IMG/VR virus record: IMGVR_UViG_3300038393_002515
Length of the DNA stretch: 64,000 bases
Source of the DNA: a virus
Direction: 5' to 3' (one strand)
The notes beneath the pieces are model-generated. The model had not been told where the DNA came from. It made no database searches and saw only the letters and a list, made by a program, of their open reading frames with translations. Positions within the stretch are counted from its first letter, which is position 1. Each line of letters starts with the position of its first letter. Made by a program: the position numbers and the translations under genes. This document shows positions 3,153 through 63,842 of this stretch, in pieces.

Positions 3153-3977
3153 TCAGGCCCGCTCCAGTTCGCCGAACGGGCTGGGGGAGAGGGCGACCAT
3201 GTCGGGAGTGATGCGGGTGGGCAGCTCGGGGGCATCGGGGTCAGGGCAGGCGAGGGCCACGACCTGGCGCAGGATGGTGCGCGGCGTGTGCTGGGGGTCG
3301 AGCCGGTTGCCCCGGTAGCTGACCAGGAGCGGGCCCCGGTCCTCGAACGACTGCGGCGGCCGGTGGGTGCGCACCGGCAGGTAGGCGCGGACGGCGGCGC
3401 GGATCTCGTCGGGGAAGGCGTAGCGGCGGGTGCCGCCGCCCTTCTGCCAGACGTCGCCGATCATCCGGCCGGACTGCTCGAAGCGGACGCCGGGCAGCTC
3501 GAACTCGGTGATCTGCCGAGAGCGCAGCCCGGCCAGCTGCAGGTAGGCGAAGAGCCGGTCGCGCTCGGCCGTCTCGCCCTCAAGCTGGTCGGCGCCCCAG
3601 CGCAGCAGCTCCATCTGGCCGGGGGTGAGCAGCTCGGTCCTGGGTGCGTTCCAGGCGCCGGTGCCCATCTTCGGGTCGACCGGCGTGGTCGTGGTGTGCC
3701 CGAAGTGGTGGGCGTAGGTGTAGAAGGCGCCGACGGCGGAGACGCGCAGGGCCCGGGTGCGGATGCTGCCGCCCTGCATGTCGAGCCAGGTGACGAAGTG
3801 GGAGGGGCGGGCGCGCCAGGCGCCGATCTGGACAGTGTCCTCGATGAAGTCGAGCCAGGCACTCACGTGCTCGGCGTACCGCTCGGGGCTGGTGCCCTGC
3901 AGCAGGCGTCCTTGCTTGCCCCGTCGGTCGGGGTTGTTCTCGTCGAGCCAGGTGGCCAGCACGGTGCGCGCGTCCAT
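3153..3977 (-). CDS. tyrosine-recombinase-like protein lacking the catalytic C-terminus
   Basis: Core-binding-like N-terminus and LAGLRSRQI (Arg-I box). The protein ends ...ITPDMVALSPSPF with no HxxR box and no Tyr box. ATG 3977 is in frame with ORF 3153..4256. Confidence 0.55.
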   Translation of the reverse strand: MDARTVLATWLDENNPDRRGKQGRLLQGTSPERYAEHVSAWLDFIEDTVQIGAWRARPSHFVTWLDMQGGSIRTRALRVSAVGAFYTYAHHFGHTTTTPVDPKMGTGAWNAPRTELLTPGQMELLRWGADQLEGETAERDRLFAYLQLAGLRSRQITEFELPGVRFEQSGRMIGDVWQKGGGTRRYAFPDEIRAAVRAYLPVRTHRPPQSFEDRGPLLVSYRGNRLDPQHTPRTILRQVVALACPDPDAPELPTRITPDMVALSPSPFGELERA

Positions 3978-5411: not shown

Positions 5412-6416
5412 TCAGGCTCCGGCGACCTTCCGGCGCCGGGTCGCGGGCCCGGAGGAGGCGCGGTGGCCGCCGTCCGGGGTGAAGACCCGCGTGGCCATGG
5501 CGGCCTGGGTGAGGTGGTCGGCGATGGCGCGGGAGATGACCATGCCGGTGGTGACCTCCACGAACCCGAACTGGCCCGAGGGGTTGGCCTCCAGGAACCA
5601 CCAGGTGCCATTGTGGTCGACCGCGAAGTCCAGGGCTGCGTACGCCAGGTCCAGCCTGCGCATCAGCGCCGTTACCTTCTTGGCCATCGGCAGCGTTATC
5701 GGCGCCGCCTCGTAGTGCTGCTCGTCCTCCGGCACGGCCCGCCAGTCCAGGCCGTCGGCGGTGATCTTGCAGGGGAACATGCGGTCCCCGATCACCGTCA
5801 GCCGGATGTCGTGCGTCTTGGCGATCGGCTGCTGGAAGTAGTGCACCCCGCGCTGGATGTTCTCCCAGCTGTCCCGGATCTCCTGGGTGGAGACCAGGCG
5901 GGCCTGCACGAAGCGGTCCGGGTGGCCGACGAGCGTCTTGCACACCACCTGGCCGCCGCACTCCTCGGCGAACACGGCGGCCTTGTCGGGCTCGTTGGTG
6001 AACAGCGCGTCCGGGGTACGGAAGCCGAGGTCGCGTGCCGTCTTGAGCTGCACCGGCCCCGGCCGGGCGGCCAGGGACCGGTGCGGGTGGTTCACCCACA
6101 GCACATCGCTCAGGCCGTACAGGAAGGACTCCAGGATGGTCCTGGACTCCGTCTGCGCCCATTCGGCCGGGTGCTCCGGATGCCACCAGAAGACCGACAC
6201 GATCGACGCCGACAGGGTGGTGCGGTGGCCGTCGTCGACGGTGAACCGCAGCGGCTCGCCGTCGGCCATGCCGGTCATGCGCAGCACGCCGGGCCGGGCC
6301 AGGTCGTTGGGGTCGATCCGGTGGACGTCCATGTCGCGGTCGGCGAGGTGCCGCACGACGAGATCGGCACCTACGTCATTGGGTGCGGCGACCATGAGCA
6401 CTGTGGGAGGGAGCAT
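5412..6416 (-). CDS. ATP-grasp ribosomal-peptide maturase (graspetide macrocyclase, MdnC/SAV_5884-like)
   Basis: RimK-type ATP-grasp layout with a C-terminal WWFLEANPSGQFGFVE block. The start ATG lies 2 nt after the stop of the precursor ORF (TGA-TC-ATG). Confidence 0.8.
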   Translation of the reverse strand: MLPPTVLMVAAPNDVGADLVVRHLADRDMDVHRIDPNDLARPGVLRMTGMADGEPLRFTVDDGHRTTLSASIVSVFWWHPEHPAEWAQTESRTILESFLYGLSDVLWVNHPHRSLAARPGPVQLKTARDLGFRTPDALFTNEPDKAAVFAEECGGQVVCKTLVGHPDRFVQARLVSTQEIRDSWENIQRGVHYFQQPIAKTHDIRLTVIGDRMFPCKITADGLDWRAVPEDEQHYEAAPITLPMAKKVTALMRRLDLAYAALDFAVDHNGTWWFLEANPSGQFGFVEVTTGMVISRAIADHLTQAAMATRVFTPDGGHRASSGPATRRRKVAGA

Positions 6417-6418
6417 GA

Positions 6419-6697
6419 TCAGTCGTCGTCCTTCGTGGTGCCGGAGGAGTTGACGGTGTAGGAGGGGCCGAAGAGCATCGACTTGGCCGGGGGCGGGGCG
6501 ACCCAGTCGTCGTCCTTCTTCGTGCCGGAGGAGTTGGTGGTGATGGTCTCGTTGGCCAGCTCGTGCCGGGCGACGTCGATGACGGGGGTGCCGCAGGAGG
6601 CCACGTTGAGCTGGCGGGCCCGGTCGTAGGTGAAGGCCGGAGTGCGGTCGGTGACCAGCGGGGGGCGCTCTGCGAGGAGGGCGAACGGAGAGGTCAT
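6419..6697 (-). CDS. graspetide (omega-ester/amide RiPP) precursor with two core repeats
   Basis: Leader SPFALLAERP resembles the microviridin PFFARFL leader motif. Two C-terminal repeats, TTNSSGTKKDDD and TVNSSGTTKDDD, are rich in Thr/Ser/Lys donors and Asp acceptors. SD GGAAGGA. Confidence 0.7.
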   Translation of the reverse strand: MTSPFALLAERPPLVTDRTPAFTYDRARQLNVASCGTPVIDVARHELANETITTNSSGTKKDDDWVAPPPAKSMLFGPSYTVNSSGTTKDDD

Positions 6698-6785
6698 GGT
6701 GGGATCCTTCCGAGCGTTGAGGGGAGCCTAGCGCGAGGCGGGGCTCAACTCGCCCCTGTGCGGGGCGGGTTCACTCATGAAGTTA

Positions 6786-6835
6786 TGACATATTCTCAGA
6801 TCGGAAAAAGTCCTCGGCGCGACTTGGCATATGCC
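6786..6835. repeat. left arm of ~50-bp imperfect inverted repeat
   Basis: TGACATATTCTC...GACTTGGCATATGCC; mirrored at 7642-7688. Confidence 0.7.
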
Positions 6836-6889
6836 ACTCCTGTCGGGCCCGCTCCGGCCAGCTCCAAGGGCTGGAGAGAGGAGCCCGCC

Positions 6890-7138
6890 ATGCCGCCCCG
6901 TCAGAAGAAGCCCGCCCGCACCGCCATCCGTCTCCCCGTCTGGCCCGAGCGGGCCTGCCGCGATCTGGTCGCCGGGGAGTTCGCCAACCACTCCTGCGAC
7001 GTTGTCGAGGGCCACCTGGGCCCGCACGCCTCGACGTCCGTGCCGATCTCCGTGGAGACGCGGCTGGCGTGGGAGAACAAGAACCTCGACAAGCTGGAGC
7101 CGACCGAGGCCGCCGACCCCTTCGTGAACGCGCTGTGA
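6890..7138 (+). CDS. hypothetical protein (gene 1 of IR-flanked three-gene cassette)
   Basis: GGAGAGAGGAG then CCCGCC-ATG 6890; high GC3. Confidence 0.55.
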   Translation: MPPRQKKPARTAIRLPVWPERACRDLVAGEFANHSCDVVEGHLGPHASTSVPISVETRLAWENKNLDKLEPTEAADPFVNAL

Positions 7139-7338
7139 GCGGCGCTGAGCAGTTCCCGGCGCCGCCGACGGCCGATCCCGCCATCGCCCTCCACGACGCG
7201 GCCGTGGCGGCCCTGCAGCGCCTGCACAACTGGCTGGCGGTGAACCGGCCCAAGACGTTGGCGGCCGCCGCCGGGGGCGAGGACGCGGTCGAGGTCGCCG
7301 TGCGACTGCTGGAGCAACTCCCACCGGAGCGCGCGTGA
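7135..7338 (+). CDS. hypothetical protein
   Basis: GTG 7135 overlaps the upstream stop (GTGA); Ala-rich helical sequence. Confidence 0.5.
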   Translation: MSGAEQFPAPPTADPAIALHDAAVAALQRLHNWLAVNRPKTLAAAAGGEDAVEVAVRLLEQLPPERA

Positions 7339-7634
7339 TGGGTGTCCGCGACCGCAGCAGTTCGCCGACCGAGTGGTGCGACTGGTGGACCGGGGTGCAC
7401 CCGCTGGCACCCCACATCGCCTACGGCTGGGTGCCCGAAGGGCTGACGGCAGACCCGTCCGACCCCAACCCCTGGTTCTGGCACTGGTGTTCTCAGCAGG
7501 GCCGGTGGATGGCGCAGGCGACACCCGACCACACCCTCGTCTCGCGCGAGCCGCTCCACATGGAGCCGTCTCTGCTGTGGCCGTGTTGCGGTACGCACGG
7601 GTTCGTCCGGGATGGCCAGTGGATCGACGTGTGA
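7338..7634 (+). CDS. Trp/Cys-rich protein, possibly DUF6527-like
   Basis: ATG 7338 shares one nt with the upstream TGA. C-terminal EPSLLWPCCGTHGFVRDGQWI resembles, from memory, the PS..C.HFF..G tail of DUF6527. Confidence 0.55.
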   Translation: MGVRDRSSSPTEWCDWWTGVHPLAPHIAYGWVPEGLTADPSDPNPWFWHWCSQQGRWMAQATPDHTLVSREPLHMEPSLLWPCCGTHGFVRDGQWIDV

Positions 7635-7641
7635 GCGTCCC

Positions 7642-7688
7642 GGCATATGCCAAGTCAGAGAATTCTCGCGGGAAGTGAGAAAATGTCA
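7642..7688. repeat. right arm of ~50-bp imperfect inverted repeat
   Basis: GGCATATGCCAAGTC...GAGAAAATGTCA. Confidence 0.7.
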
Positions 7689-7897: not shown

Positions 7898-8383
7898 TCA
7901 GTCCTCGTCGAAGACGTCGCCGGACTCCTCGGCGGCCATCCGGTCCAGCTGCTCCTCGAAGGCCTGCTGGATAGGGCCCATGCGCGGCTCGACCGGCACA
8001 CCGGTGCGGGCCTCCTCGGCCTCGGCCTCCAGAATCATCTGGTGGCGCTCCTCCAGCAGGGCACGCCACAGAGCCACGGAGCCGTTCTGGACCTTGTAGC
8101 GATGCCCCTGGTACTCCGCCTGGAAGGCGCCGAGGTGGGCCTTCATCGGGCCCGTGAACTTCACCGACGCCTTCGTCACGACGGACAGCCTGGTGCCCAT
8201 CCGGCCGCCCGGCGCCAGCATGAAGTTGAGCTGGGGCTTGGACGGCGCCGACGGCTCCGGCTCCGGGGTGGGGTCGGGGACGGCCTGCAGCACCCGCTCG
8301 GGGGGCTGCTCCTGCTCGGTCCGGGCAGCGGCCTGTGCCGCCGCACGCCGTGCTGCCCGCGCGGGACTCTGCTTCTTACCCAT
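7898..8383 (-). CDS. hypothetical protein (downstream of int, same strand)
   Basis: ATG 8383 after GGGAGG; basic N-terminus and acidic C-terminus. Confidence 0.6.
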   Translation of the reverse strand: MGKKQSPARAARRAAAQAAARTEQEQPPERVLQAVPDPTPEPEPSAPSKPQLNFMLAPGGRMGTRLSVVTKASVKFTGPMKAHLGAFQAEYQGHRYKVQNGSVALWRALLEERHQMILEAEAEEARTGVPVEPRMGPIQQAFEEQLDRMAAEESGDVFDED

Positions 8384-8414
8384 GACGACCTCCCACGGTG
8401 ATAGGCACCCAGTC

Positions 8415-8450
8415 TAACCGCATCAACGGACATGCGGTTATGCGGTTTTT
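8415..8450. repeat. hairpin plus tandem ATGCGGTT duplication at int 3' end
   Basis: TAACCGCAT-caacggac-ATGCGGTTA-TGCGGTTTTT; overlaps the int stop codon (8438-8440). Confidence 0.7.
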
Positions 8451-9403
8451 CCTTGATCGGGCGTCGCCAGGAACTTCGCCAGGTCGTACACCGGCGACTC
8501 GTCCAGGTCACCCCGGGACAGGTCGTAGCGGGTCGTGGTGCGTGGGTCGGCGTGGCCGAGGAAGCGCTGGACCTTCCGCAGCGGCACCTTGGCGTCCAGC
8601 ATCAGCGTGGCGCAGGTGTGTCGCAGGCCATGCGGGGAGATCCGTGTGACCCGGGCGGCCCGGCAGGAGCGGGAGACGATGACGGCGATGCGCCGGTTGG
8701 TCAGCCGGGCGCCGTCGGCGCACAGGATCAGCGGGTCCTCGGGCTGGCGGTGGGGCCGCATCGCGAGGTGGGCGTCGAGCGCCTTCGCCGCGTCCGGCGG
8801 CACCACGAGCGTCTGCTTCTTCGTCCGCTTGCGGGTGACCTGCAGCGTGCGGTGGCCGCGCTCGCCGTCGTAGTGCTGCACGTTGGCGCTCTCCAGCTCG
8901 GCCGAGCGCAGCCCCATGCCCAGCAGCACCTCGCAGACGGCCGAGTCCACCGCCCCGTACTCCCGGGCCATCTTGCGGAAGGCGCGGGCTTGCGCCCTGT
9001 CCAGGCCGAGCGTCTGCGACTCCTCGGAGACCTCGACGCGGTGCTTGCGCCGGTACGGCGAGCGCCGGATCTCGTACGCCTGCTCGTACTCGTCCAGGCC
9101 GAACTCGTACCAGCCGCTCATGGCGCTGAGCGCCTGGTTCACCGAGGACGGGGCGAACACCTCCTGCAGGTCGGCCGACCACTGCGCGGAGTGTTCACGG
9201 CGGGCCGCCAGCGGGGAGACCCCGTTGTCGAGCGTCCAGTCGAACCACGCCTCGATGCACCGCTTGTAGGCAGCGCGAGTGTGGGCGTTGCGGTGCTCCA
9301 GCAGCCACTGCCGCTCGATCTCCCCGCACACCCGGCGGATGTACGCCTCGTTCTCGTCCAGCTGCAGCGCGCCCGCCGGGGCGACGACCAGGTCAGTGGT
9401 CAT
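8438..9403 (-). CDS. int: tyrosine integrase / site-specific recombinase
   Basis: MGLRSAEL (Arg I), SPHGLRHTCAT (HxxR), LGHADPRTTTRYD (His/Tyr). ATG 9403 is in frame; the longer ORF-track N-terminus is Arg/Pro junk. Confidence 0.85.
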   Translation of the reverse strand: MTTDLVVAPAGALQLDENEAYIRRVCGEIERQWLLEHRNAHTRAAYKRCIEAWFDWTLDNGVSPLAARREHSAQWSADLQEVFAPSSVNQALSAMSGWYEFGLDEYEQAYEIRRSPYRRKHRVEVSEESQTLGLDRAQARAFRKMAREYGAVDSAVCEVLLGMGLRSAELESANVQHYDGERGHRTLQVTRKRTKKQTLVVPPDAAKALDAHLAMRPHRQPEDPLILCADGARLTNRRIAVIVSRSCRAARVTRISPHGLRHTCATLMLDAKVPLRKVQRFLGHADPRTTTRYDLSRGDLDESPVYDLAKFLATPDQGKTA

Positions 9404-9795
9404 GACGTGATCTTGCCGTACCTCTCCTCGATCTCGGCCTTGCACGGCCTGCAGGTGCTGTGCCCGTACGTCCAGGCCGTCTTGTCGAACTGGTCGCGGT
9501 CGAGCCAGCGGAAGCACGAGCCGCACAGCTCCTGGCCCTCCGTGGGCGGGCCCGAGTGCAGGCGCCAGCCGGTCTTGCGCTCCTTGCCCTGCTTGGTGGT
9601 GCCGGACTCGTGCAGGTTGCGGCGGGCGATCCAGCGGAAGCCGCCCAGGCGCTGGCCGCCGGACGGGTCCCAGACCTTGATCCTGTCGCCGTCCACGCTC
9701 CACACGACGAACGGCTTGTGGCGCGTCTCCCCCCAGAGGTAGTCCGTCTTGCACGGCACGTACGTCTGTTCCGGCAGCACCTCGAAGTCACTCAC
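9400..9795 (-). CDS. Cys-rich hypothetical protein translationally coupled to int (candidate directionality factor)
   Basis: GTG 9795 after AAGGGGGA. Its TGA overlaps the int ATG (ATGA, 9400-9403). CGSC...CRPC pairs. Confidence 0.55.
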   Translation of the reverse strand: MSDFEVLPEQTYVPCKTDYLWGETRHKPFVVWSVDGDRIKVWDPSGGQRLGGFRWIARRNLHESGTTKQGKERKTGWRLHSGPPTEGQELCGSCFRWLDRDQFDKTAWTYGHSTCRPCKAEIEERYGKITS

Positions 9796-10154
9796 GAGTC
9801 CCCCTTGGTCAGCTTGGCCACGGTGGCCTCCAGGTTGGCGATGCGCTGCTGCTGATAGACGAGCAGGCTGGCGAGGCGCTCGATGGCGTCGCTCTGGATC
9901 TCCCGGTAGTCGCCGGGGTCGTCCGGCGTGACGGCGTCGCACAACGCGGAGTTGACGTCCTGGGCGGTCACGGAGCCGACTCGGGTGCGTGCGGCGCACC
10001 ACTCGCCGACGGGCTCTCCGTTCCAGGCGTCGACACCGATGGCGGGTTCGTCGCCGCAGTAGCAGATGTTCGTGTTGGCGGTCACGGAGAGATTTTTACA
10101 TACCCCCCGAGGGTTCGCGTCGATAATGCCAGTTATCGACGCGTAGATGATCAA
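9792..10154 (-). CDS. hypothetical protein, start uncertain
   Basis: The stop overlaps the next GTG (GTGA). The only upstream in-frame start is TTG 10154, directly abutting a terminator T-run, and the first ~20 codons are AT-rich and contain a 9-bp palindrome. Confidence 0.4.
   Translation of the reverse strand: MIIYASITGIIDANPRGVCKNLSVTANTNICYCGDEPAIGVDAWNGEPVGEWCAARTRVGSVTAQDVNSALCDAVTPDDPGDYREIQSDAIERLASLLVYQQQRIANLEATVAKLTKGDS
10118..10141. repeat. 9-bp-arm palindrome in AT-rich patch at head of int operon
   Basis: CGTCGATAA-tgccag-TTATCGACG. Confidence 0.6.
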
Positions 10155-10160
10155 GAAAAA

Positions 10161-10180
10161 GGCCCCGCCGTCGCGGGGCC
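10161..10180 (-). terminator. intrinsic terminator after 10185..10673
   Basis: GGCCCCGC-cgtc-GCGGGGCC followed by TTTTT on the minus strand. Confidence 0.7.
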
Positions 10181-10184
10181 AGAC

Positions 10185-10673
10185 TCAGGGGCGCTCGTCC
10201 GGCTCCAGGAAGAGGCCGGTGTGAGCCACCGGCGCGCGGCGCGACTCCTCCGGCGCGGGAGGTTGGTGCTGCTGCGTCCCGTCGTCCTTGGCGTTGCGCT
10301 GGATGTTCCTGACGGCGATCCAGGTCCGGGAGATCGAGGTGGTGCGGTACCTGGTGATTCTCGTGGAGTCGAGATTCAGCAGGACGCCGTACCGGCCGAT
10401 CCGGCGGGGCGCTTCCAGGCGGAGTTGCGGCAGCTCACGGTGCTGGTAGACCCGGCCCGCCACGGCGCTGTAGGTGAGCAGCTCCACAAGGTGCTGGGCG
10501 GCCAGGTCCTCCGAGACGCCGTGGATGCGACTGTAGGTCTGCGCGGTCGCGGGAGAGACGTTTACCAGGCGGCCGAGGGCGGCGGCCTCCTCCGAGGTGA
10601 AGCCGTTCGTTTCCGCCCAGTCGGGATGGTTCGGCTTGAACCAACTCTCGTTCGTGCGCCCCCTGTCAGTCAT
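10185..10673 (-). CDS. hypothetical protein
   Basis: ATG 10673; followed by hairpin 10161-10180 plus a T-run. Confidence 0.55.
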   Translation of the reverse strand: MTDRGRTNESWFKPNHPDWAETNGFTSEEAAALGRLVNVSPATAQTYSRIHGVSEDLAAQHLVELLTYSAVAGRVYQHRELPQLRLEAPRRIGRYGVLLNLDSTRITRYRTTSISRTWIAVRNIQRNAKDDGTQQHQPPAPEESRRAPVAHTGLFLEPDERP

Positions 10674-10773
10674 GACGGCAGCGTACCGTCGCCGCGTCCT
10701 ACCGCGCTGTGGCTCTTACGGAGTCGACAGGAGGGGTAACGGAGGTAACCGCACCTATCGCGGCCCGGCAGGG

Positions 10774-11049
10774 CTATCCACCCTGCGCGTAGGCGCGCGC
10801 CTCGTCGTACTCGGCGGCGCAGAGGGCGCAGTCGTCGGTCAGCTCGGCGTGGCCGTGCTGCCAGCGTGCCTGGATGAAGAAGTACCGGCGCGAGGGACCG
10901 TAGGGGCCTGTCGGATCTGCGCCACGCCCGAGGACGCACCTGGCGTCCTGGCAAGCGTGGTCGTCGATGAGCGGTGCATAGATCAGGGGTGTGCCGTGGA
11001 TGGGGCACACGCAGGTCTCGTCGCACCGGTGCGGCATGGTGGCGGCCAT
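10774..11049 (-). CDS. Cys/His-rich hypothetical protein
   Basis: ATG 11049 (MAATMPHRCDETCVCPIHG...). The upstream extension of ORF 10774..11367 has lower GC3. Confidence 0.45.
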   Translation of the reverse strand: MAATMPHRCDETCVCPIHGTPLIYAPLIDDHACQDARCVLGRGADPTGPYGPSRRYFFIQARWQHGHAELTDDCALCAAEYDEARAYAQGG

Positions 11050-11979: not shown

Positions 11980-12210
11980 TCAGACGGTCAGGCCGTCGAC
12001 GAACGCCGCCCAGGCCTCGGGCCGGAAGGCGAGAATGCGGGCGTCGGCGGAGTCCTGCTTGCTGTCGTAGACGCCGACGGCGGCCACGGCACCCGTGGTG
12101 TCCTGCTGGATTCCCTGGAAAACGCAGTTCTCGCCCGAACCGCTCTCGCTCGACTTGTGCCAGCCGGTGAACTGCTCCTTCGTGTACTGCATGGACTGCG
12201 TTCCTTTCAT
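11980..12210 (-). CDS. DUF397 domain protein (BldB-like)
   Basis: WHKSSESGSGENCV...VYDSKQ...ILAFRPEAWAAFV matches the DUF397 pattern. ATG 12210 lies 13 nt after the HTH gene stop. Confidence 0.75.
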   Translation of the reverse strand: MKGTQSMQYTKEQFTGWHKSSESGSGENCVFQGIQQDTTGAVAAVGVYDSKQDSADARILAFRPEAWAAFVDGLTV

Positions 12211-12223
12211 CGGTTTCCCCGGC

Positions 12224-13090
12224 TCACAAGCGGCTGAGGAAGTTGTGGAGGTACCGGCGGGAATCCGGTACCGACAGGGCTTGGCTCTGCAGCCTGTCAT
12301 AACGGGCACGGTACATGGAAACCTGCTCTTCGTCCTCGAAGAACGTTCCGTCTCCGTACCCCTCACGAAACGTCAACTCCACGTCAACTACGGTCAGTAG
12401 AGTGAAGGATCCAGACATCCCGGCGTGCAGGCCCGAGGCCAGAGGGAGGATCTGGATGCTGGCCCTCGTCTCTCCCAGGTTGAGCAGGTGTTGGATCTGT
12501 TCGCGATGCGCCTCGACGTCCCCCTCGGCAGGGGGCGTCAGGACCGCAGCCTCTCCTATGATCGCCCACACCTGCGGCGGGTGTTCGGTCTGCAGCAACT
12601 TCTTGCGCGTCTCACGCAGCGCCAAGTGCCCCTCGATCACCCCCGGATCCACCAGCGGCTGGCCCGGCTGGGCCAGATTGCCCCTGCGGATGGCCTCCTC
12701 GGAGGTTCGCGCCGTCTGCAGGAGGCCGGGGATGACGTACGGCTCCCAGGTACGCAGGGCGGTCGCCATGCTCTCCGCGTCGGCATAGTCGGTGTAGGTG
12801 GGCCCGAGACGGCTGGCCACACCAAGCGGAGCGCGCTCCTTGGCCCGGGTCGCCCACTCCTCCATGCGCTCGATCTGCCGGGAGTCGCTGATCCCGTAGA
12901 TACGGCAGTAGGCGCCGATCATGCCCTTCTTGACGGCCGTGTGACCGGACTCGTTCCGGTAGATCGTCGGCACAGACAGGCCGATCTTGTCGGCGACCTC
13001 CTTGGCTGTAAGTCCGGCCTCGTCACGGGCCAGCTTGAGCATGCGCCCGAGGATGCGTCTGCGGATGGTAGGCAGCGATCCGTACGCCAC
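12224..13090 (-). CDS. XRE-family HTH regulator with DUF5753 C-domain (WhiJ/Scr1-like)
   Basis: LKLARDEAGLTAKEVADKIGLSVPTIYRNESG HTH plus a long C-domain. GTG 13090 after GAGGGGAGGA. Confidence 0.75.
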   Translation of the reverse strand: MAYGSLPTIRRRILGRMLKLARDEAGLTAKEVADKIGLSVPTIYRNESGHTAVKKGMIGAYCRIYGISDSRQIERMEEWATRAKERAPLGVASRLGPTYTDYADAESMATALRTWEPYVIPGLLQTARTSEEAIRRGNLAQPGQPLVDPGVIEGHLALRETRKKLLQTEHPPQVWAIIGEAAVLTPPAEGDVEAHREQIQHLLNLGETRASIQILPLASGLHAGMSGSFTLLTVVDVELTFREGYGDGTFFEDEEQVSMYRARYDRLQSQALSVPDSRRYLHNFLSRL

Positions 13091-13294
13091 GAGCCTGTCC
13101 TCCCCTCGTCGGTCAGTGCGGCAAGTCTGCACCCCCGTCAGGCTCTTAGACCAGTCACCCGCATGTGCACATTCTCATTCTGAGGACTTGCAGAACGAGA
13201 GATCTTCCGCCACGGTGGGTGACAACCCGCTTGCGCCAGGTACCGCATCGGTGTGAGCAGGCCTCACCTGCCCATCCTGCAACGGGAGTTACAC

Positions 13295-13774
13295 ATGCAC
13301 TCCCAGACTCGCCAGGGTCCGCCAACCCTGGGTCTGCTTGGGAACATCCGCTACACCCGCGCCTATTCGAAGGAACTGGCGAGCGTGCCTCTCGCTCGTG
13401 CGCGGTTCCACGAGGCCGCCGACGACAGCAAGCTCGACCACGAGATCGCCGAGAAGGCCGTGCTGTGCCTGTCCGAGCTGGCCGGTAACGCCGTCAGACA
13501 CGCCCACGACCCGCGCAAGATCCGCCGGTTCCTCGTCGAGTCCACGATCCGCCCGATACGCCGCCGCTTCACCCTGGAGGTCAGCGTTTGGGACATCGAC
13601 CTCTGCCACATCCCCCCTCTGCCGGACCCCGCCACGGCCGCCGCGCGGCTCTTCTCCATGGACGAGGACGCCATGAGCGGGCGAGGGCTGCTGTTCGCCG
13701 CCTCCCTGTCCGACGGCATCGGCATCGACCGTGGCCCCCACGGCAAACGAGTCTGGTGCCGCTGGCACCTCTGA
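13295..13774 (+). CDS. HATPase_c_2 anti-sigma-factor-type Ser kinase-like ATP-binding protein
   Basis: LSELAGNAVRHA N-box and GRGLLF G-box; divergent from the WhiJ-like gene, which is the classic triad arrangement. Confidence 0.7.
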   Translation: MHSQTRQGPPTLGLLGNIRYTRAYSKELASVPLARARFHEAADDSKLDHEIAEKAVLCLSELAGNAVRHAHDPRKIRRFLVESTIRPIRRRFTLEVSVWDIDLCHIPPLPDPATAAARLFSMDEDAMSGRGLLFAASLSDGIGIDRGPHGKRVWCRWHL

Positions 13775-37228: not shown

Positions 37229-37272
37229 GAACCCCACCCTAACGCAGCTATAGATGCGCTAGGGTGGGGTTC
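37229..37272. promoter_or_regulatory. mirrored copy 12: 44-bp near-perfect palindrome with TAGGGTG boxes facing both ways
   Basis: GAACCCCACCCTAACGCAGCTA|TAGATGCGCTAGGGTGGGGTTC; two mismatches per 22-nt arm; no TTGAC on either side. Confidence 0.55.
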
Positions 37273-50575: not shown

Positions 50576-50669
50576 TCTTTGCGTTTCGTCGCCGGATTTC
50601 TCCGGTCTGGCAGTGGTTGTCAGTGGCCGCCACCACAATGCAAACACCCGCCAACTGAAGGAGAACACC

Positions 50670-52418
50670 ATGGCCAAGCGGAAGTCGCTTCAGCCCTGGC
50701 CGGAGACGGTATGGCACAGCTCTGGCCGAGTCCGCGAGAGCACCTCGTTGCAGGTGATCCGCCAGCATCTGCAGAACTCGGTCGGCTTCGACACGATCGA
50801 GCGGTGGCGCGAGTTCACCCCGGAAGACGAGTCGCCGTGGTGGTGGGGATTCGATTCCGCCTGGAGGACTCCCGACGGTGACCGCGTCAAGGCCCGCCTG
50901 CTGCTGGCGCCGGACACCACCTTCGTCAAGCGCATGAAGCTCTCCAGGCAGGACCTGGAGGCCAAGAACATAGACGTCGAGCTCGCATGGGTTCTGACCG
51001 CCGAGGCCGACACCCCCTGGGACAACAACTGGAGGTCCCCGCTGGGGATGTTCGGCGACCGCCGGACGTACGACTGGGCCAGCGGGCGCATGCCGCTCAT
51101 GACCTACACCGGCTTCACCGAGATGGACACCGACCACATGCGGGAGGGGTTCGAGGAGCTCGCGGAATGCCCCTGGTACATCACGGTCATCACCCACGAC
51201 ACGCGGCCCTTGCACGAGGCCTCGGAGGGTGATGGGTGCGTCGCATCGTTCGTGCCGCCGTCCCTGCAGGGCCGGGTTCTGGAGTTCCGCGTCTTCGGAG
51301 ACCAGGACGCCATCATCAACGCCGACGGAGTCCTGCCGGACAGCAAGCTGAGACTGAAGATGGGCGGGGCACTGATCCTGCCGACCGTTCCTCGGCAGGA
51401 CGGATGGTCCTTCGCCGACTACGCCATCCGGCGGCCGCTCGGCGGAGACCTGGAGCAGCTGCTGAAGGAGGCGGCCGAGACCGTCGCCCGCTACGGCGCG
51501 CTGCAGCCGCACTACTGCGAAAACGCTCGCTGGGCTGTGGAGGACCTGCGCCGGTCGTGGGTGCTCCCGGAGATCGAGGAGGCGCCCCGGCGGGTCCTGT
51601 TGGAGAAGCAGCGCTCCGAGGAGCAGGTCGTAGAGCTGCAGGGTGCGCTGCAGAAGCTGCGGGGTGAGGCCGAGCAGGAGCGGCGGGAGCACAGGGCGAC
51701 CCGGCAGGAGAAGGACGAGGCCGTGAGGCGGCTGACGGAGCTCACGAAGAGCCCGCTGGTGCAGGGGGCTCACGAGGCCCGTCGCGAGGCTGAGATGGCG
51801 TGGTCGGCGCAGGAGGCGACCGACGAGCTGGCCGAGCGGCTCGCGTCCGAGATCGGCTGGCTGCGGCGGCAGCTGGCCGAGAGGCCCGGCCGCTCGTACG
51901 ACGAGAAGGCGCCGGAACTTCCCAAGGGCCCCGAGTCCTGGGAGGAGCTGCTGGTGCTCGCTCCGGAGCTGCTGCCGAAGATCCGCGTCCTCGACGACGT
52001 CCTCGACTCGGTGTCCAAGATCGACCGCCACCCCAAGACGAAGCTGTGGCTGCGCCGGACGTGGACCGCGCTGGAGGCCTACCAGGCCTACGCCGAGGCC
52101 AAGGAGTCCCAGGGGCCGGTGGTGCTGCCGACCATGCAGGCGTACCTGCAGTGGGAGCTGGCCGACACCATCTTCCCCCAGTCCTGGCACGCCGGTAAGG
52201 AGGCAAGCATGACGCGGAGGGATCCGAAGTACGCGGCCCTGCGGACCTTCACTGTGCCGGAGCACGGGCCGGTGCTCATGGGCGAGCACGTCCGGATCGG
52301 CGACAACCGGCCCCCGGCGCCGCGCATGTACCTCTTCGACGACACCTCCGGGCCGACCGGCCTGATCTGGGTCGGCTACATCGGCCCGCACCTGCCCAAC
52401 GGTGTGAAGGTGTCCTGA
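50670..52418 (+). CDS. large hypothetical protein with central coiled coil
   Basis: GAAGGAG-N6-ATG. Residues ~330-440 are Glu/Arg/Gln heptad-like. The C-terminal ...PRMYLFDDTSGPTGLIWVGYIGPHLP tail is unassigned. Confidence 0.6.
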   Translation: MAKRKSLQPWPETVWHSSGRVRESTSLQVIRQHLQNSVGFDTIERWREFTPEDESPWWWGFDSAWRTPDGDRVKARLLLAPDTTFVKRMKLSRQDLEAKNIDVELAWVLTAEADTPWDNNWRSPLGMFGDRRTYDWASGRMPLMTYTGFTEMDTDHMREGFEELAECPWYITVITHDTRPLHEASEGDGCVASFVPPSLQGRVLEFRVFGDQDAIINADGVLPDSKLRLKMGGALILPTVPRQDGWSFADYAIRRPLGGDLEQLLKEAAETVARYGALQPHYCENARWAVEDLRRSWVLPEIEEAPRRVLLEKQRSEEQVVELQGALQKLRGEAEQERREHRATRQEKDEAVRRLTELTKSPLVQGAHEARREAEMAWSAQEATDELAERLASEIGWLRRQLAERPGRSYDEKAPELPKGPESWEELLVLAPELLPKIRVLDDVLDSVSKIDRHPKTKLWLRRTWTALEAYQAYAEAKESQGPVVLPTMQAYLQWELADTIFPQSWHAGKEASMTRRDPKYAALRTFTVPEHGPVLMGEHVRIGDNRPPAPRMYLFDDTSGPTGLIWVGYIGPHLPNGVKVS

Positions 52419-52439
52419 CCCTCCTCTCTTCCTGTCTCA

Positions 52440-52475
52440 CCCCTCCCTCGGCCCCTCAAGGGGCGGAAGGAGGGG
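52440..52475 (+). terminator. nested hairpin between 50670..52418 and 52484..54661
   Basis: CCCCTCC / GGAGGGG outer stem and GCCCC-tcaa-GGGGC inner stem. The right arm overlaps the SD of the next gene. Confidence 0.4.
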
Positions 52476-52483
52476 TGTTTCGC

Positions 52484-54661
52484 ATGTACGACGCCGTTGA
52501 GCCGAGCCCGTACGACTCGCTGAACATCAACGACCCGTGGGCCGACGAGGACCGCGAGCGCACGAGCGAGCCGATGCGCCCTCATGAGCGCGGCCCGCGC
52601 CGCAACCCCTCCCGTGAAGACCGTTCCGTACGTCGCCGGATGCGCCGCGCGGGCGCGCAGGAGGAGAACAGCATGCCCAGCCCTGACCGCTCCGAGCTGC
52701 TGAAGCGGATCGAGAGTGCCAAGACCTTCGACGAACAGGTCCAGCTCGTCGCCCAGCTTCACGAGCTCGACCGGCGGGCCCAGCGCACCGCCGCGCTGGA
52801 GCGCGAGGCCGACCTGGCCAACACCTCCATCCGCGAGGCGTTCACGCCGGTCATCTCCGCCACCGCGCGCGGCACCACGGCCTCCGACTGGCTGGACACC
52901 GAGGTCGCCGACGCACCGTTCGACCACGGCCAGCTGATCGCGCAGGCCGCGCTGTGGTTCAAGGACGTGCCGGACTTCGTCCGCGCCGACCGGGACGAGT
53001 TCACCGAGCAGGCCGTCGGCAAGGCCCGTCAGGTCACCTCCAGCCTCGGCGCGCAGGCAGGGACGGCCGAGGACATCTTCGTCGGCTACGCCCACTTTCT
53101 GCGTGGCCAGTCGGTCGTCGTCGAGGCCGCCTCGGGCCTGGACCAGATCCAGCAGACGACCGCGCCGGACGGCGTCACCAGCAAGCCCACGCCGCTCCCG
53201 CCCGACGCGTTCGACAACTTCGCGCCGCCGGTCGCCGACATCAACACCGCCGTCTCCGGCACGGAGACCTCCAGCGCGGCTCCGGCGATCCAGATGGCCG
53301 TCGGCGGCGGCGGGAACTCCAGCCCCGAGGTGCCCGGCGGCCACGACAGCAGCGGCCAGCTGACCGGTCCCGGCGCCGAGCCGTCCCTGTCCGGCGGTGG
53401 CGGCAACTCCTCGCCGGAGCGCGCGGGCGGCCACTCCATCTCCGGGGACGTCCCGGCGCAGGGCGGCCCTACCAACGCCGCGCCGCAGGCCGAACCGGCG
53501 CAGGAGGAGACCGAGCAGACCCAGGAGGCCGGGGACGTCTCCCAGCGGCCCAAGACGGCCGCGTCCGGCCTGCAGCAGGTCCAGCAGTCGGTCGACGTCC
53601 ACGACCAGAACCACACCACGCCGCTGCCGACCACCGTGGCCTTCCCCTGGACCATGGACGAGGGCGAGTCGGCCGACGGCATGACCGGCGAGGCCCACTA
53701 CGACCAGGGCGGCCAGGTCTCCTCCGGCCACCAGGCGCACGCCAGCCTGCAGCGGCAGGCCGACTCCTGGACCCAGCCGAACCAGATCATCGAGCCGAAC
53801 ATCGCCAACTCGCCCCGCTCCACGCCGCCTCGGAACGTGGGGCAGGCCGGTGACGGCGCGGCCGACGCCCGCGCGGCCGAGACGCAGCCTTCGTTCGGTG
53901 ACGCGCACGCCGCGCCCCAGTACACACAGGGCTACACCAGCGCTGCCCCGGCCGCGCCCGCGCAGGACGTGCCGGTGTCGATGGGCGGCGACAACGGACA
54001 GTCCCTGAAGCACCCGGCGTTCGCCTCGCGGCGCGTCGCCAGCAAGCAGGACATGCAGCACCCGGACTTCCAGAAGGGCTACAAGTACGCGGCCCGCTGG
54101 CAGGAGGGCACCCCCGTCGTGCGTCCCGGCTCTCCGGAGCTGGAAGCCGGTATCTACGCCGCCTTCACCGACCGGCCGCAGCACCGGGCGGCGTGGCTGT
54201 CCGCGCACGCGGCGCTGGCCAGTGTCGAACCGGGCCTGGGCCGCCGGATCGCCAAGCACAGGGAGCTGACCCACAAGGTGGCGGCCGCGCAGGCGCTGCC
54301 GACTGACGGCACCTACCTGCAGGTCCAGGCCGCCACCGGGATCGACCTGGACACCACCAACCCGTCCACGTCGCCGTCGCCGACCGGCGACACCCCGATC
54401 AACGGCCCCGGCAAGCCCGGCCCGCTCGCCGGACAGATGGACGCGGCCGCCCCGGCCGGTGCCGCCCCCTACAACGGCGCCGAACCGTTCGGGCAGCCGG
54501 TCGTGCCGTCCGCTCCGGCCGTTCCGCAGGGCCAGCCGGTGACCATCCCCGACAGCGGCATGGCGTCCGCCTACAACAGCGGCTCCGGCCTGTCCCCGAC
54601 GGCGGCTGCGTTCCGCCGCCAGGTTCAGGCGGGCCTCCTCGCCGAGAGGACCGGCCGATGA
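52484..54661 (+). CDS. large low-complexity (Gly/Pro/Ala/Ser/Gln-rich) protein, possible virion protein
   Basis: GGAAGGAGGGG-N8-ATG 52484 (alternative ATG 52673 after CAGGAGGAG). Internal repeat GGGGNSSPE(V/R)(P/A)GGH. Confidence 0.55.
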   Translation: MYDAVEPSPYDSLNINDPWADEDRERTSEPMRPHERGPRRNPSREDRSVRRRMRRAGAQEENSMPSPDRSELLKRIESAKTFDEQVQLVAQLHELDRRAQRTAALEREADLANTSIREAFTPVISATARGTTASDWLDTEVADAPFDHGQLIAQAALWFKDVPDFVRADRDEFTEQAVGKARQVTSSLGAQAGTAEDIFVGYAHFLRGQSVVVEAASGLDQIQQTTAPDGVTSKPTPLPPDAFDNFAPPVADINTAVSGTETSSAAPAIQMAVGGGGNSSPEVPGGHDSSGQLTGPGAEPSLSGGGGNSSPERAGGHSISGDVPAQGGPTNAAPQAEPAQEETEQTQEAGDVSQRPKTAASGLQQVQQSVDVHDQNHTTPLPTTVAFPWTMDEGESADGMTGEAHYDQGGQVSSGHQAHASLQRQADSWTQPNQIIEPNIANSPRSTPPRNVGQAGDGAADARAAETQPSFGDAHAAPQYTQGYTSAAPAAPAQDVPVSMGGDNGQSLKHPAFASRRVASKQDMQHPDFQKGYKYAARWQEGTPVVRPGSPELEAGIYAAFTDRPQHRAAWLSAHAALASVEPGLGRRIAKHRELTHKVAAAQALPTDGTYLQVQAATGIDLDTTNPSTSPSPTGDTPINGPGKPGPLAGQMDAAAPAGAAPYNGAEPFGQPVVPSAPAVPQGQPVTIPDSGMASAYNSGSGLSPTAAAFRRQVQAGLLAERTGR

Positions 54662-55047
54662 GCGCTGAACTGACCGAACTTGCCGAGCTGTGGAGCCGGT
54701 TCGCCGAACAGGCCGCTGGCGCGGAGCCCGACCGGGCCAGGGGGATCTTCCTCATCAAGGCCGACGGGAGCGGCGAAATGCTGGCCGTCGACCACGAGGG
54801 CGGACTGCGGACCGCCGACTTCTCGGCCGAGAACCTGGCTTATCAGTCGGCAACCCCGCTCAAGCAGTGCATCTCGATGCTGCGGCTCATGTGCAAGGAC
54901 GCCGACCGGCCCCCCGGCCAGCGCACATACCCGCTGCCCCAGTCCATCGACCGCGTCCGGGCCCTCCTGGGCGAGGCGGGCCTGGACGCCCCCGAAGTCC
55001 ACATCTGGGAGGTCTACACGACCTCCGCCGCCGAGAAGGGCGCCTGA
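54658..55047 (+). CDS. hypothetical protein
   Basis: ATGA overlap at 54658. Confidence 0.55.
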   Translation: MSAELTELAELWSRFAEQAAGAEPDRARGIFLIKADGSGEMLAVDHEGGLRTADFSAENLAYQSATPLKQCISMLRLMCKDADRPPGQRTYPLPQSIDRVRALLGEAGLDAPEVHIWEVYTTSAAEKGA

Positions 55048-55050
55048 GCC

Positions 55051-56313
55051 ATGGACATCGCATCCCTGATGTGGGACGAGACCGGCCGCGACATCGACCA
55101 CGAGCAGCGTGAGCTGGCCCGTACGGCCGCCCTGAACGACGCGGAGCGCCTGGTCGGCCAGTTCCTCTACCAGGCGGCCAGCGACGCCGACCTGACCAAC
55201 CGTCTCGCGCTGGCCGACGAGCGGCTGCAGGCCGTCGCATCCGTGCGCGGCTACCCGATGCAGGACCTGACCGGCGATCTGAAGGAGCGCTGGCGGCTGC
55301 TGTCCCAGGCCCGGACGGCGACCGCGCAGAAGACGGCCGCCGTCCGGCAGGTGACGGCCGCCCAGGAACGCGCCATGGACGCGGTGGCGGCCCGCCTGGC
55401 GGCCGTGGCGGCGCGGCAGAACCCGTCCGTGCCGATGTCCGAGTGCCTGAAGCTGGCCGTCGAGGCCGTCCGCAAGCACGCCGACGCCTACCCGCTGGCG
55501 TACGAGTCGTGGGGAGGCACGGCCGACGGTCCCATCACCAACCGGGTCAAGAACTTCACGCCGGGCAACCTGCCGAAGTCCTATGACCCCAGCGGCGCGC
55601 CGGACGCGGACCCGGGCATGTTCGACTCGGTCCACAAGCGCCTGGACGACATGGAGACGAAGCTGGCCGGGCCCTCCAGCCCCTCTGGCCCGGCCTCCGG
55701 GCCGCCGTCGGGACCCGCCGGACCCGGCAGTCCGACCACCGCGTCTCTGGAGCCCACCGTCGCCGGGTTTTTCGAGCGGCTGAAGGACTGGTGGCACGGA
55801 CCGAGCCAGGAGCCGACCACAGCCCCGGCCCCGGCGGCCGAGGAGCGGGCCCCTTACATGATCCCGAGCAACAACGCGGCCTCCGACCACGTCGATGACG
55901 CCGTCGCGCGCCACCACGACGAGCAGGGGCGCCGGGAGTTCGACGAGATCATGCGGCGTCTGGACAGCGACCAGGCCGAGATGAACCACAAGTGGGACAC
56001 CGCCCGCGAGGACCGCTTCGAGAGCCCTGCGGAGACCAACCAGCGCACGCGGTACCTGCAGGACGCTCACGACCGGCGGACGACCGACATGGAGCGGCGT
56101 CTGGACGAGATGGGGCGCACTCCTTCCCGGCTTCCGTTCTCGCACGCCGAGCCCGAACAGAGCGGGTCGTCGGCGCCGCTGGACCACCCGGCCCCGGCCA
56201 GCTTCTCCCACGCCGACACCGGCGCCAGCGGCGGCCAGCAGGTGCTGCCGACCGACCCGGCCGAGCACGCCTTCTCCCACCGAGCCAGCCTCCAGCACAG
56301 CCTGTTCGAGTAG
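55051..56313 (+). CDS. hypothetical helical/low-complexity protein
   Basis: GAAGGG-N10-ATG. Confidence 0.55.
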   Translation: MDIASLMWDETGRDIDHEQRELARTAALNDAERLVGQFLYQAASDADLTNRLALADERLQAVASVRGYPMQDLTGDLKERWRLLSQARTATAQKTAAVRQVTAAQERAMDAVAARLAAVAARQNPSVPMSECLKLAVEAVRKHADAYPLAYESWGGTADGPITNRVKNFTPGNLPKSYDPSGAPDADPGMFDSVHKRLDDMETKLAGPSSPSGPASGPPSGPAGPGSPTTASLEPTVAGFFERLKDWWHGPSQEPTTAPAPAAEERAPYMIPSNNAASDHVDDAVARHHDEQGRREFDEIMRRLDSDQAEMNHKWDTAREDRFESPAETNQRTRYLQDAHDRRTTDMERRLDEMGRTPSRLPFSHAEPEQSGSSAPLDHPAPASFSHADTGASGGQQVLPTDPAEHAFSHRASLQHSLFE

Positions 56314-62927: not shown

Positions 62928-62941
62928 CCCCAAGGGGTGAG
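62928..62941 (+). promoter_or_regulatory. late-gene-associated motif CCCCAAGGGGTGAG (upstream of endolysin)
   Basis: GCGGCT-N6-CAAGGGGTGAG-N6-CACCAC. Confidence 0.4.
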
Positions 62942-62972
62942 ATCTCACACCACCCCTTCGGGAGGGCACCCC

Positions 62973-63842
62973 ATGACCACGACCCCCGACTGGCGCCGCC
63001 TGGTCGACCACGTCCAGTCCATACCCGAGAAGATCTACGAGACCTGGAACAGCCGCGACGGCTGGGACAACCACACCATCTTCGGCAAGGAGTACGGCTG
63101 GGACGGTGTGGCCTGGTGCTGCATCTTCGACTGGGACATGTACCACGACTGCGGCCTCGACGCGATCGTCCCCAAGACCGCGTCCGTCGCGGGCATGACC
63201 GCCTGGGCCAAGCAGAAGGGCCAGTGGAGCGAGTACCCGAGCATCGGCGCCTGGGTCAACTTCTCCAACGGCGGCCACACCGAGATCGTCGTCGGCTTCG
63301 ACGAGACGTGGGTGTACACCAAGGGCGGCAACAGCATCCAGACCGGGTCCGAGGACAACGGCCAGGGCAACGGCGTCTGGTCCCACACCACCGCCCGCCG
63401 CGCCACCAAGGTCGTCGGCTACTTCGCCCCGCACTTCCCCGACGGCGTCTGCCCTCCCACCGCCGACCCCAACGACCCGCGCGGCGGCAAGGCGGTCGCC
63501 TCCTGGCGCTGGTCGCCGCAGGTCACCCCCGCGCCGACCAAGCCGACCCCGTCCACCCCGGCGCCGACCAAGCCGAAGTGCCCGGCCTTCCCCGGCCGCC
63601 AGTACTTCAAGCTCGGCGCGAAGAACAAGTACGCCAAGCAGCTGCAGACCTGGCTCGACAAGGGCAACTGGGGCCCCAAGTACGTCATCGGCCCGTCCGA
63701 CACCATGACCCAGAAGGACCTCGACAAGGTCAAGGCGCTGCAGGCGCACTACCTCTCCGCGCTCGGCCCGGCCGACGGCCTGTGCGGCCCGAAGACCTGG
63801 CAGTACGCCTTCGAGGTCGCCAACGGTCTGCGCAAGAAGTAG
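62973..63842 (+). CDS. endolysin: N-terminal CHAP peptidase plus C-terminal peptidoglycan-binding-like domain
   Basis: Catalytic-like Cys in GVAWCCIF and His in GGHTEIVVG; Pro/Thr linker; C-terminal LQTWL..GP..DG.CGPKTW repeat-like PG_binding_1 pattern. Confidence 0.7.
   Translation: MTTTPDWRRLVDHVQSIPEKIYETWNSRDGWDNHTIFGKEYGWDGVAWCCIFDWDMYHDCGLDAIVPKTASVAGMTAWAKQKGQWSEYPSIGAWVNFSNGGHTEIVVGFDETWVYTKGGNSIQTGSEDNGQGNGVWSHTTARRATKVVGYFAPHFPDGVCPPTADPNDPRGGKAVASWRWSPQVTPAPTKPTPSTPAPTKPKCPAFPGRQYFKLGAKNKYAKQLQTWLDKGNWGPKYVIGPSDTMTQKDLDKVKALQAHYLSALGPADGLCGPKTWQYAFEVANGLRKK

Follow-up and report, generated by a model that had tools for sequence, protein, structure and literature searches.

Does a pair of adjoining genes on a viral sequence encode a complete graspetide pathway, and if so, what is such a pathway doing there? 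The pair in question lies at positions 5,412 to 6,697 of IMG/VR virus record IMGVR_UViG_3300038393_002515, and the whole stretch of 64,000 nucleotides that was analysed is called the window in what follows. [quoted passage not shown] We consider it likely that the pair is a self-contained two-gene graspetide operon and the movable cargo of a temperate Streptomyces phage or phage-plasmid. The features that this reading concerns are as follows.

6419..6697, minus strand: predicted graspetide precursor gene, 92 aa (open reading frame (ORF) listing and sequence; stop codon TGA at 6419-6421).
5412..6416, minus strand: predicted ATP-grasp macrocyclase gene, 334 aa (ORF listing, NCBIfam, Protein Data Bank (PDB) sequence matches, AlphaFold2 (AF2) model and Foldseek).
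6698..6843, minus strand: upstream region travelling with the operon (Shine-Dalgarno sequence GGAAGGA, -10-like hexamer and AT-rich stretch; within the segment that is non-homologous to the plasmid pRLB1-9.1).
5404..6843, strand not applicable: swappable cassette of 1,440 bp, made up of the operon and the 146-nt upstream region (blastn against pRLB1-9.1, locus L001).

At the junction of the two genes, the TGA of the precursor (6421-6419) is separated by TC from the ATG of the ligase (6416-6414). The TGA-TC-ATG coupling at 6414-6421 that had been noted earlier can thus be read directly from the minus strand, and the junction GACGACTGAnnATG, or the overlap TGATG, is kept across homologous loci. 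A Shine-Dalgarno sequence GGAAGGA is located at 6705-6711, 7 nt 5' of the precursor ATG, and further upstream a -10-like hexamer TAGGCT lies inside CGCTAGGCTCC (6723-6733); the occurrence of CGCTAGGCTCC upstream of both convergent genes was statistically not significant. At third codon positions the precursor has a GC content (GC3) of 0.96 and the ligase one of 0.95, like real genes of this 70%-GC genome. One gene caller placed the ligase start to give 327 aa; we preferred the 334-aa start because the N-terminal MPLPPTVLVV is common to the ligase homologues. Intact homologous small ORFs with 49-60% amino-acid identity lie directly upstream of a ligase homologue at more than 13 independent loci, and 19 contigs from several samples carry an identical precursor. 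Given the GC3 values, the score of the precursor against TIGR04186 (see below), the conserved small ORFs upstream of the ligases and the conserved stop/start junction, the gene pair is not a chance ORF arrangement. With a length of 1.3 kb and no tailoring genes, the operon should be easy to express. As an observation on its own, the codons of the C-terminal KKDDD of the precursor, AAGAAGGACGACGAC (6419-6440, minus strand), are purine-rich and Shine-Dalgarno-like and stand just 5' of the ligase ATG; part of the nucleotide conservation of KKDDD may serve translation initiation of the ligase.

The best NCBIfam match of the ligase is TIGR04187 ("ATP-grasp ribosomal peptide maturase"; E 1.6e-75, 254.2 bits, under the curated cutoff of 350 bits), followed by MvdC and MvdD, with RimK (5.6e-14) and LysX far weaker; its scores against TIGR04185 and TIGR04184 are 121 (cutoff 425) and 94 (cutoff 475), respectively. 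All six PDB sequence matches are graspetide ligases, namely PruB, MdnB, AMdnB, MdnC, PsnB and CdnC. The AF2 model, built on 35 homologues, has a predicted local distance difference test (pLDDT) score of 91.5, and its Foldseek ranks 1-32 are all graspetide macrocyclases, with PruB (9bou, 34% identity) at the top and AMdnB, MdnC, CdnC, MdnB and PsnB after it, RimK and LysX appearing only from rank 33. The ATP-grasp lysines and an E-x-N motif are catalytic signatures of ATP-grasp enzymes, and here K160, K200 and the metal-binding motif E276-x-N278 are invariant across the 35 homologues. Sequence and predicted fold together place the ligase in the RiPP macrocyclase clade of MdnB, MdnC, PsnB, CdnC and PruB, with no sign of clustering with non-RiPP ligases in either the PDB matches or the first 32 Foldseek ranks. 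The enzyme had previously been called RimK-type ATP-grasp; the ATP-grasp part of that label stands, and its type is rather that of PruB, MvdC and MvdD. One could still read the enzyme as a RimK/LysX-like amino-acid ligase that acts on another protein or metabolite, with the small ORF incidental or untranslated, and the sub-cutoff TIGR04187 score and the weak RimK and LysX matches would fit such a reading. However, RimK and LysX are far weaker matches than the graspetide ligases both by sequence and by fold, and the small ORF has a GC3 of 0.96, passes TIGR04186, has invariant core residues and, at more than 13 loci, invariably lies right upstream of the ligase, which makes this explanation extremely improbable.

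The ligase ends in a tail that sets it apart from the canonical enzymes:

5415..5492, minus strand: C-terminal ligase tail, residues 309-334 (...ATRVFTPDGGHRASSG... / ...FTPDGGHRASSG), a clade marker.

Of 24 clade ligases, 23 have the tail motif [FY]TP[DG]GGH[RKH]ASS, compared with none of 11 canonical TgmB/PruB-type ligases, and the tail is predicted to be disordered (pLDDT below 50 at residues 316-328). In these comparisons, a conserved and probably disordered tail is specific to the ligases paired with KKDDD precursors; it may have a part in recognition by the enzyme. About 30 ligases, named "hypothetical protein" in public records, are 57-73% identical to that of the window, whereas named TgmB/MvdC-type ligases are only 33-38% identical to it. 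The KKDDD precursors and tailed ligases together constitute, as judged from their sequences, a distinct graspetide subclade.

The precursor consists of the leader MTSPFALLAERPPLVTDRTPAFTYDRARQLNVASCGTPVIDVARHELANE, core 1 TITTNSSGTKKDDD, the linker WVAPPPAKSMLFGP and core 2 SYTVNSSGTTKDDD, in this order:

6548..6697, minus strand: leader, M1-E50, with PFALL at aa 4-8 and YDRARQLNV at aa 24-32; presumed ligase-docking region.
6506..6547, minus strand: core 1, T51-D64, ETITTNSSGTKKDDD (internal copy), found in most homologues.
6422..6463, minus strand: core 2, S79-D92, SYTVNSSGTTKDDD (C-terminal copy), with conserved residues in 13 aligned precursors.

The precursor scores 26.5 bits against TIGR04186 ("putative ATP-grasp-modified RiPP") and passes the cutoff of 25; together with the TIGR04187 match of the ligase and the sequence and fold comparisons above, this supports the graspetide assignment of the preliminary description. 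The leader shows homology to those of canonical TgmA precursors (hhalign probability 97%, E 5.6e-11, 43 columns), in agreement with the PFALL leader motif proposed earlier, which is followed here by YDxxRQLNV. This profile-profile alignment spans the leader only, and the core does not align with the canonical ...STAGSKTHxDD. Homologous precursors were mostly recovered by translating the DNA upstream of ligase homologues, and 13 of them align well. Their conserved leader blocks are PFALL, DRTP and YDxxRQLNV, with F5, A6, L7, L8, D25, Q29 and N31 invariant or nearly so. The C-terminal core is near-invariant, G-[PD]-[ST]-x-T-x-N-x-x-[GE]-x-[KT]-K-D-D-D-stop, and G77, T81, N83, K89, D90, D91 and D92 are the same in all 13. 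The short core motif of the clade, [ST]xTxNxxGx[KT]KDDD, usually occurs twice per precursor, which in the window was described before as two near-identical C-terminal cores and is evident both in the protein and as a 39-nt direct repeat in the DNA (90% identical, 84 nt apart). In most precursors the internal copy ends in KKDDD followed by Phe or Trp; it is absent in Tu6071, NPDC058440 and NPDC001822, which have one core each, and degenerate in NPDC006872. Since some homologues are single-core or have a decayed first core, the C-terminal core is probably ancestral and the internal core looks like a duplication. That the C-terminal core is invariant across homologues that have diverged by about 50% points to purifying selection. 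Database searches with the precursor itself returned few relatives: a word-indexed search found itself and one relative only, and an exhaustive phmmer search, run against 1.84 billion representative proteins, yielded no more than four true relatives, so the family is either small or its short ORFs are often left uncalled. One further match of the exhaustive search, P0088, was rejected as spurious, being a CnaB-like repeat protein.

What the pair would make can be proposed from its relatives. The mechanism of MdnC/PsnB-type enzymes is established and consists of leader binding, formation of an acyl-phosphate, and capture by Thr/Ser to give an ester or by Lys to give an amide. On this model, both genes would be co-transcribed, with translation of the ligase coupled to that of the precursor through the 2-nt gap, and the ligase would dock on the leader by way of the PFALL helix and YDxxRQLNV. 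By phosphorylation it would then turn side-chain carboxylates of each core's terminal Asp triad into acyl-phosphates, which the Thr/Ser hydroxyls (S/T79 and T81) would capture as omega-esters, and the Lys just before the triad would probably capture a carboxylate as an omega-amide. Each tandem core would become a small cage through up to about three dehydrations; with its three invariant Asp, a pair of conserved hydroxyl residues and one or more Lys, a core has room for as many as three rings. We infer both the cross-links and their pattern from MdnC/PsnB-type ligases. Our best guess, again by analogy, is that the product would be a bivalent (two-headed) protease inhibitor like the microviridins and plesiocin, and since the pair comes with neither an exporter nor a leader protease of its own, the putative inhibitor would act in the lysogen or after phage lysis. 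The [ST]xTxNxxGxKKDDD double core, which is uncharacterised, could give a new ring topology as well as a bivalent inhibitor.

The closest characterised system is PruA/PruB (prunipeptin) of Streptomyces, its PruB (9bou) being the nearest ligase of solved structure (34% identity; E 5.7e-38 by sequence and 1.5e-28 by Foldseek; TM-score 0.76-0.88). Prunipeptin, reported by Unno and Kodani in 2021, is said to come from a minimal two-gene precursor and ligase cluster in Streptomyces and to have a C-terminal Asp-ending core. The canonical precursors of the PruB enzyme/leader family (PruA itself not being part of this comparison) end in one copy of ...STAGSKTHxDD, whereas those of the present family have [ST]xTxNxxGxKKDDD, usually in two copies; the window ligase also differs from the prunipeptin enzyme by its extra conserved tail, predicted to be disordered, and the window pair is phage-borne. 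The TgmA/TgmB(/TgmC) family (TIGR04186/TIGR04187/TIGR04188, Strep_pep), an actinobacterial group first noted, reportedly, by Iyer in 2009, shares with the pair the homologous leader, the TIGR04186 pass, TIGR04187 as best match and the association with XRE-DUF5753 and HATPase genes. In contrast to that family, the window has a ligase of 33-38% identity that is below the cutoff and carries its own tail, no TgmC, and a core that cannot be aligned. Microviridins (MdnA with MdnB/MdnC) have the same ligase fold (TM-score about 0.8 to MdnC and AMdnB) and a leader motif of the same P-h-h-x-h type, and the Thr/Ser/Lys-to-acidic cross-linking would be the same; however, the window has one ligase and not two, no GNAT, no exporter and no TxKYPSDWEE core, and its host is an actinobacterial phage and not a cyanobacterium or member of the Bacteroidetes. 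Plesiocin and thuringinin resemble the pair in having tandem cores in one precursor and a single ligase (the PsnB fold match), but they have ester links only and three to four repeats, the plesiocin core is TTxxxxEE, and ligase identity is 20-21%. A true homologue of the window pair (53% precursor and 68% ligase identity; loci L004/L088) is cluster6377 of Streptomyces sp. NRRL S-455, an uncharacterised singleton that the supplement of Makarova 2022 (PMC8939145) lists as a predicted graspetide precursor and assigns to the Actinobacterial branch, in an entry without phage context, phage spread or family motif. The double DDD-ended core had been put forward as one that may define an undescribed topology; it is uncharacterised, and a KKDDD core had already been catalogued as cluster6377. 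The peptide type is thus on record though uncharacterised, and what is new is its phage-restricted distribution, the movement between backbones and cassette swap, the KKDDD tandem core and the ligase tail.

The carrier itself encodes a portal protein (57840-60005; phrog_2833, E 7.7e-140), a tail protein (60002-62902; phrog_11699, E 3.6e-90) and an endolysin (62937-63842), and a dCTP deaminase is also present in the window. Together with the Xer-like recombinases described below, this gene content marks the carrier as a temperate phage or phage-plasmid. Of the two carriers suggested previously, phage or integrative and conjugative element, the former agrees with the portal, tail protein and endolysin, and the latter was dropped, no conjugation gene having been identified in the carrier.

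The only extensive nucleotide relative of the window in the plasmid collection is pRLB1-9.1, a 154-kb circular Streptomyces plasmid that is also listed as viral in IMG/VR; the phage collection held no extensive nucleotide relative. The flanks of the pair are 81-85% identical to pRLB1-9.1 in DNA (blastn) and 60-80% identical in protein. This homology reaches 5403 and starts again at 6844, and the interior is unaligned except for a 70% patch within the ligase gene. In the same slot pRLB1-9.1 has a canonical tgmA together with an MvdC/MvdD-type ligase that is only 37% identical, plus an additional small gene. One cassette has thus been cleanly swapped for another in a fixed slot, pRLB1-9.1 carrying a different graspetide pair.

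Close homologues of the pair also occur between flanks that have no further ORF in common with the window, and in total the lineage was seen on at least eight unrelated backbones. IMG/VR contains seven related loci on six distinct contigs. With the exception of one metagenome-assembled genome (MAG), all relatives with readable context are in a phage, prophage or phage-plasmid. The contexts are as follows.

Phage genome family of about 92-96 kb, mostly IMG/VR-listed, including the S. africanus and NRRL S-455 contigs: terminase, portal, GP88 and lysin.
GDS52 "plasmid": holin, amidase, Dit and tape-measure genes.
Prophages NPDC006872, Tu6071, NPDC001822, NPDC058440 and GCA_049998355, at host junctions: tape-measure, CHAP, RusA, DnaB, Lsr2, DUF3987 and integrase.
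Small island with a 45%-identical relative: serine recombinase and small terminase.
MAG contig_41549 (L109), 8100-11014: clade ligase with no recognisable precursor upstream, flanked by IS605/TnpB and a restriction-modification pair; it may be a disrupted copy.
Strain M2CJ-2: pair at a contig end beside host-type genes, context unreadable.

The view of the pair as accessory cargo, already taken in the preliminary description, is borne out in that the pair is the only content common to the window and seven other backbones and is cleanly swapped relative to pRLB1-9.1. Taken together, the contexts suggest that this graspetide lineage resides almost only on Streptomyces phages and moves between unrelated backbones. 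Among cultured phages, a nucleotide search of INPHARED with the first 25 kb of the window gave no match, and a protein search of INPHARED gave only 27%-identical ligases (Leptospira phage LE1 and a gut phage) and no close homologue. The degenerate first core of NPDC006872, and the MAG ligase that has IS605/TnpB flanks and no adjacent precursor, could be taken as signs that the pair is a decaying, non-functional remnant hitch-hiking in the accessory region of phages. Against this, the ORFs of the window are intact, have a strong codon bias and keep all invariant ligase and core residues, the identical precursor is found on 19 contigs from several samples, and the C-terminal core is under apparent purifying selection, so that we regard decay as very unlikely.

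Two observations concern the nature of related records. In the GDS52 record (JBQQCR010000003.1, L104/L105), the same ligase gene and its neighbours occur twice in 126,646 bp, 87,785 bp apart, which suggests that the record is a concatemer, longer than one unit, of an approximately 88-kb phage genome and not a plasmid. Two Streptomyces plasmids of about 88-89 kb, NZ_CP108500.1 (NBC_01240) and NZ_CP130725.1 (NBC_01238), carry MvdC/MvdD-type ligases 38% identical to that of the window; given that their size is near that of the GDS52 phage-like unit, these, too, may be phage-plasmids that carry graspetide genes as cargo.

Phage carriage of a graspetide pair is unusual, as RiPP clusters are rare on phages. 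In a survey of 2,112 actinobacterial prophages, biosynthetic clusters of any type were present in 0.6%, with class I lanthipeptide and type III polyketide synthase clusters highlighted and ATP-grasp RiPPs unmentioned (PMC10023795). ATP-grasp RiPPs are likewise unmentioned in a survey of phage-encoded clusters, and our literature search, limited to the papers available, found no report of phage-borne graspetides. The near-confinement of the lineage to phages, its hopping between backbones and the exchange of graspetides at a fixed slot point to a selected role in phage biology over ordinary secondary metabolism. What that role could be is a separate matter. With the same biosynthesis, the product could be an intracellular conflict weapon, the precursor, cross-linked but uncleaved, inhibiting a competing phage's protease (e.g. 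the capsid-maturation serine protease, leading to superinfection exclusion) or a host protease belonging to a defence or stress response. No exporter or leader protease was found in any locus examined, the pair adjoins integrase or XRE immunity-type regulators, which is the usual site of lysogen-expressed cargo, and related elements have exchanged one graspetide type for another at a single slot, as an arms race predicts; moreover, antiviral action has been suggested for graspetides through the serine proteases that viruses depend on (PMC11626197). However, those antiviral data concern eukaryotic viruses, no target was identified, PADLOC gave no matches, and the present data fit intracellular and extracellular action alike. 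We hold such a role as an intracellular conflict weapon to be possible but doubtful. A bolder version, which we think unlikely, is that temperate phages of Streptomyces keep and exchange graspetide cassettes as conflict weapons, the two-headed protease inhibitor made by the lysogen blocking the capsid-maturation protease of a superinfecting phage or a protease-dependent host defence, and slot swapping being the trace of an arms race. If true, graspetides would become the first class of RiPPs for which phages encode a role in conflict with other phages or with the host.

Returning to the reading of the pair as a graspetide operon carried by a phage, several points weigh against it. The ligase is under the curated TIGR04187 cutoff, as given above, and the precursor scores 22.4 against the Pfam family Strep_pep (PF14404), under the cutoff of 25. 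The graspetide chemistry is predicted from genes, fold and conserved residues, and the amide link is uncertain because the position of Lys before the Asp triad varies among homologues (KK, TK, RK and KR). The protease-inhibitor function is argued from analogy, and there is no protease or exporter gene near the pair that would account for a mature or released peptide. Finally, no capsid or terminase was identified in the window, where the large ORFs at 50613-56313 have no PHROG or Pfam match, and the label of phage therefore draws on the relatives and on the genes for portal, tail and lysin; the 64-kb window may not cover the whole element.

The pair is situated inside a 13-kb block of mostly leftward genes that also contains two Xer-like recombinases and a trio of XRE-DUF5753, DUF397 and HATPase genes:

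8438..9403, minus strand: Xer-like tyrosine recombinase/integrase (PF00589, 6e-22; TIGR02224, 1.4e-32).
3153..3977, minus strand: second, divergent Xer-like tyrosine recombinase (weak XerC match, 8.5e-8; its homologue in pRLB1-9.1, 77% identical, bears the annotation tyrosine-type recombinase).
11980..13774: WhiJ-like regulator trio, with DUF397 at 11980-12192 (minus), XRE-DUF5753 at 12224-13042 (minus) and HATPase_c_2 at 13295-13774 (plus) (Pfam on the identical contig L097; Sco1979-family match).

The earlier placement of the pair among integrase genes is correct in that the two recombinases flank the region, and there is indeed no protease, transporter or methyltransferase among the neighbours, including no O-methyltransferase (TIGR04188, PIMT-like) of the kind that marks graspimiditide/TgmC-type clusters. 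The surroundings had also been called repeat-flanked, which we could not reproduce: no repeats bracket the pair, and the repeats of the region are promoter/operator-like motifs found elsewhere too. PADLOC defence models had no match for the pair or its eight neighbours, and scanning the window against Rfam and for tRNAs gave nothing. In unrelated prophages (L106, L108, L109, L110, L111 and L113), too, a pair of XRE-DUF5753 and DUF397 genes lies no more than a few kb from the graspetide pair, and the same regulator families have been noted near actinobacterial ATP-grasp loci (Makarova 2022, PMC8939145); they could be a dedicated regulator or a prophage immunity module.

Two DNA motifs were also found in the element. 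A 30-nt motif CACGCATCTATGGATGCGTTAGGGTGGGGG, made up of the palindrome GCATCTATAGATGC and a TAGGGT -10-like hexamer, occurs 12 times against 0 expected, at 622, 13809, 14529, 16743, 18563, 19956, 23456, 25572, 27659, 30622 and 39773 on the plus strand and at 37231 on the minus strand. Several copies are just 5' of rightward genes and a few are at or just inside predicted ORF starts, and the motif probably serves as a promoter/operator peculiar to this element. The leftward block of 13 kb with the graspetide pair is located between two copies and has none inside. The second motif, TGACAT[AT]TTCTC, has 3 matches against 0.26 expected, two of which form an inverted pair at 6786-6797 (plus) and 7677-7688 (minus) that brackets three small rightward genes (6890-7634) adjoining the graspetide operon. 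One copy is also present in pRLB1-9.1, and the motif may be bound by a regulator.

Beyond this region, many large ORFs (420-728 aa) between 16655 and 56313, including those beside the portal, have no Pfam or PHROG match, the element being composed mostly of ORFans. A protein of about 915 aa with ART-PolyVal (ADP-ribosyltransferase-like) and 2'-5' RNA ligase domains, followed by a 1,292-aa ORF, is encoded both in this element (L097 16938-19685, just left of window position 1) and in pRLB1-9.1 (L001 5230-7716).

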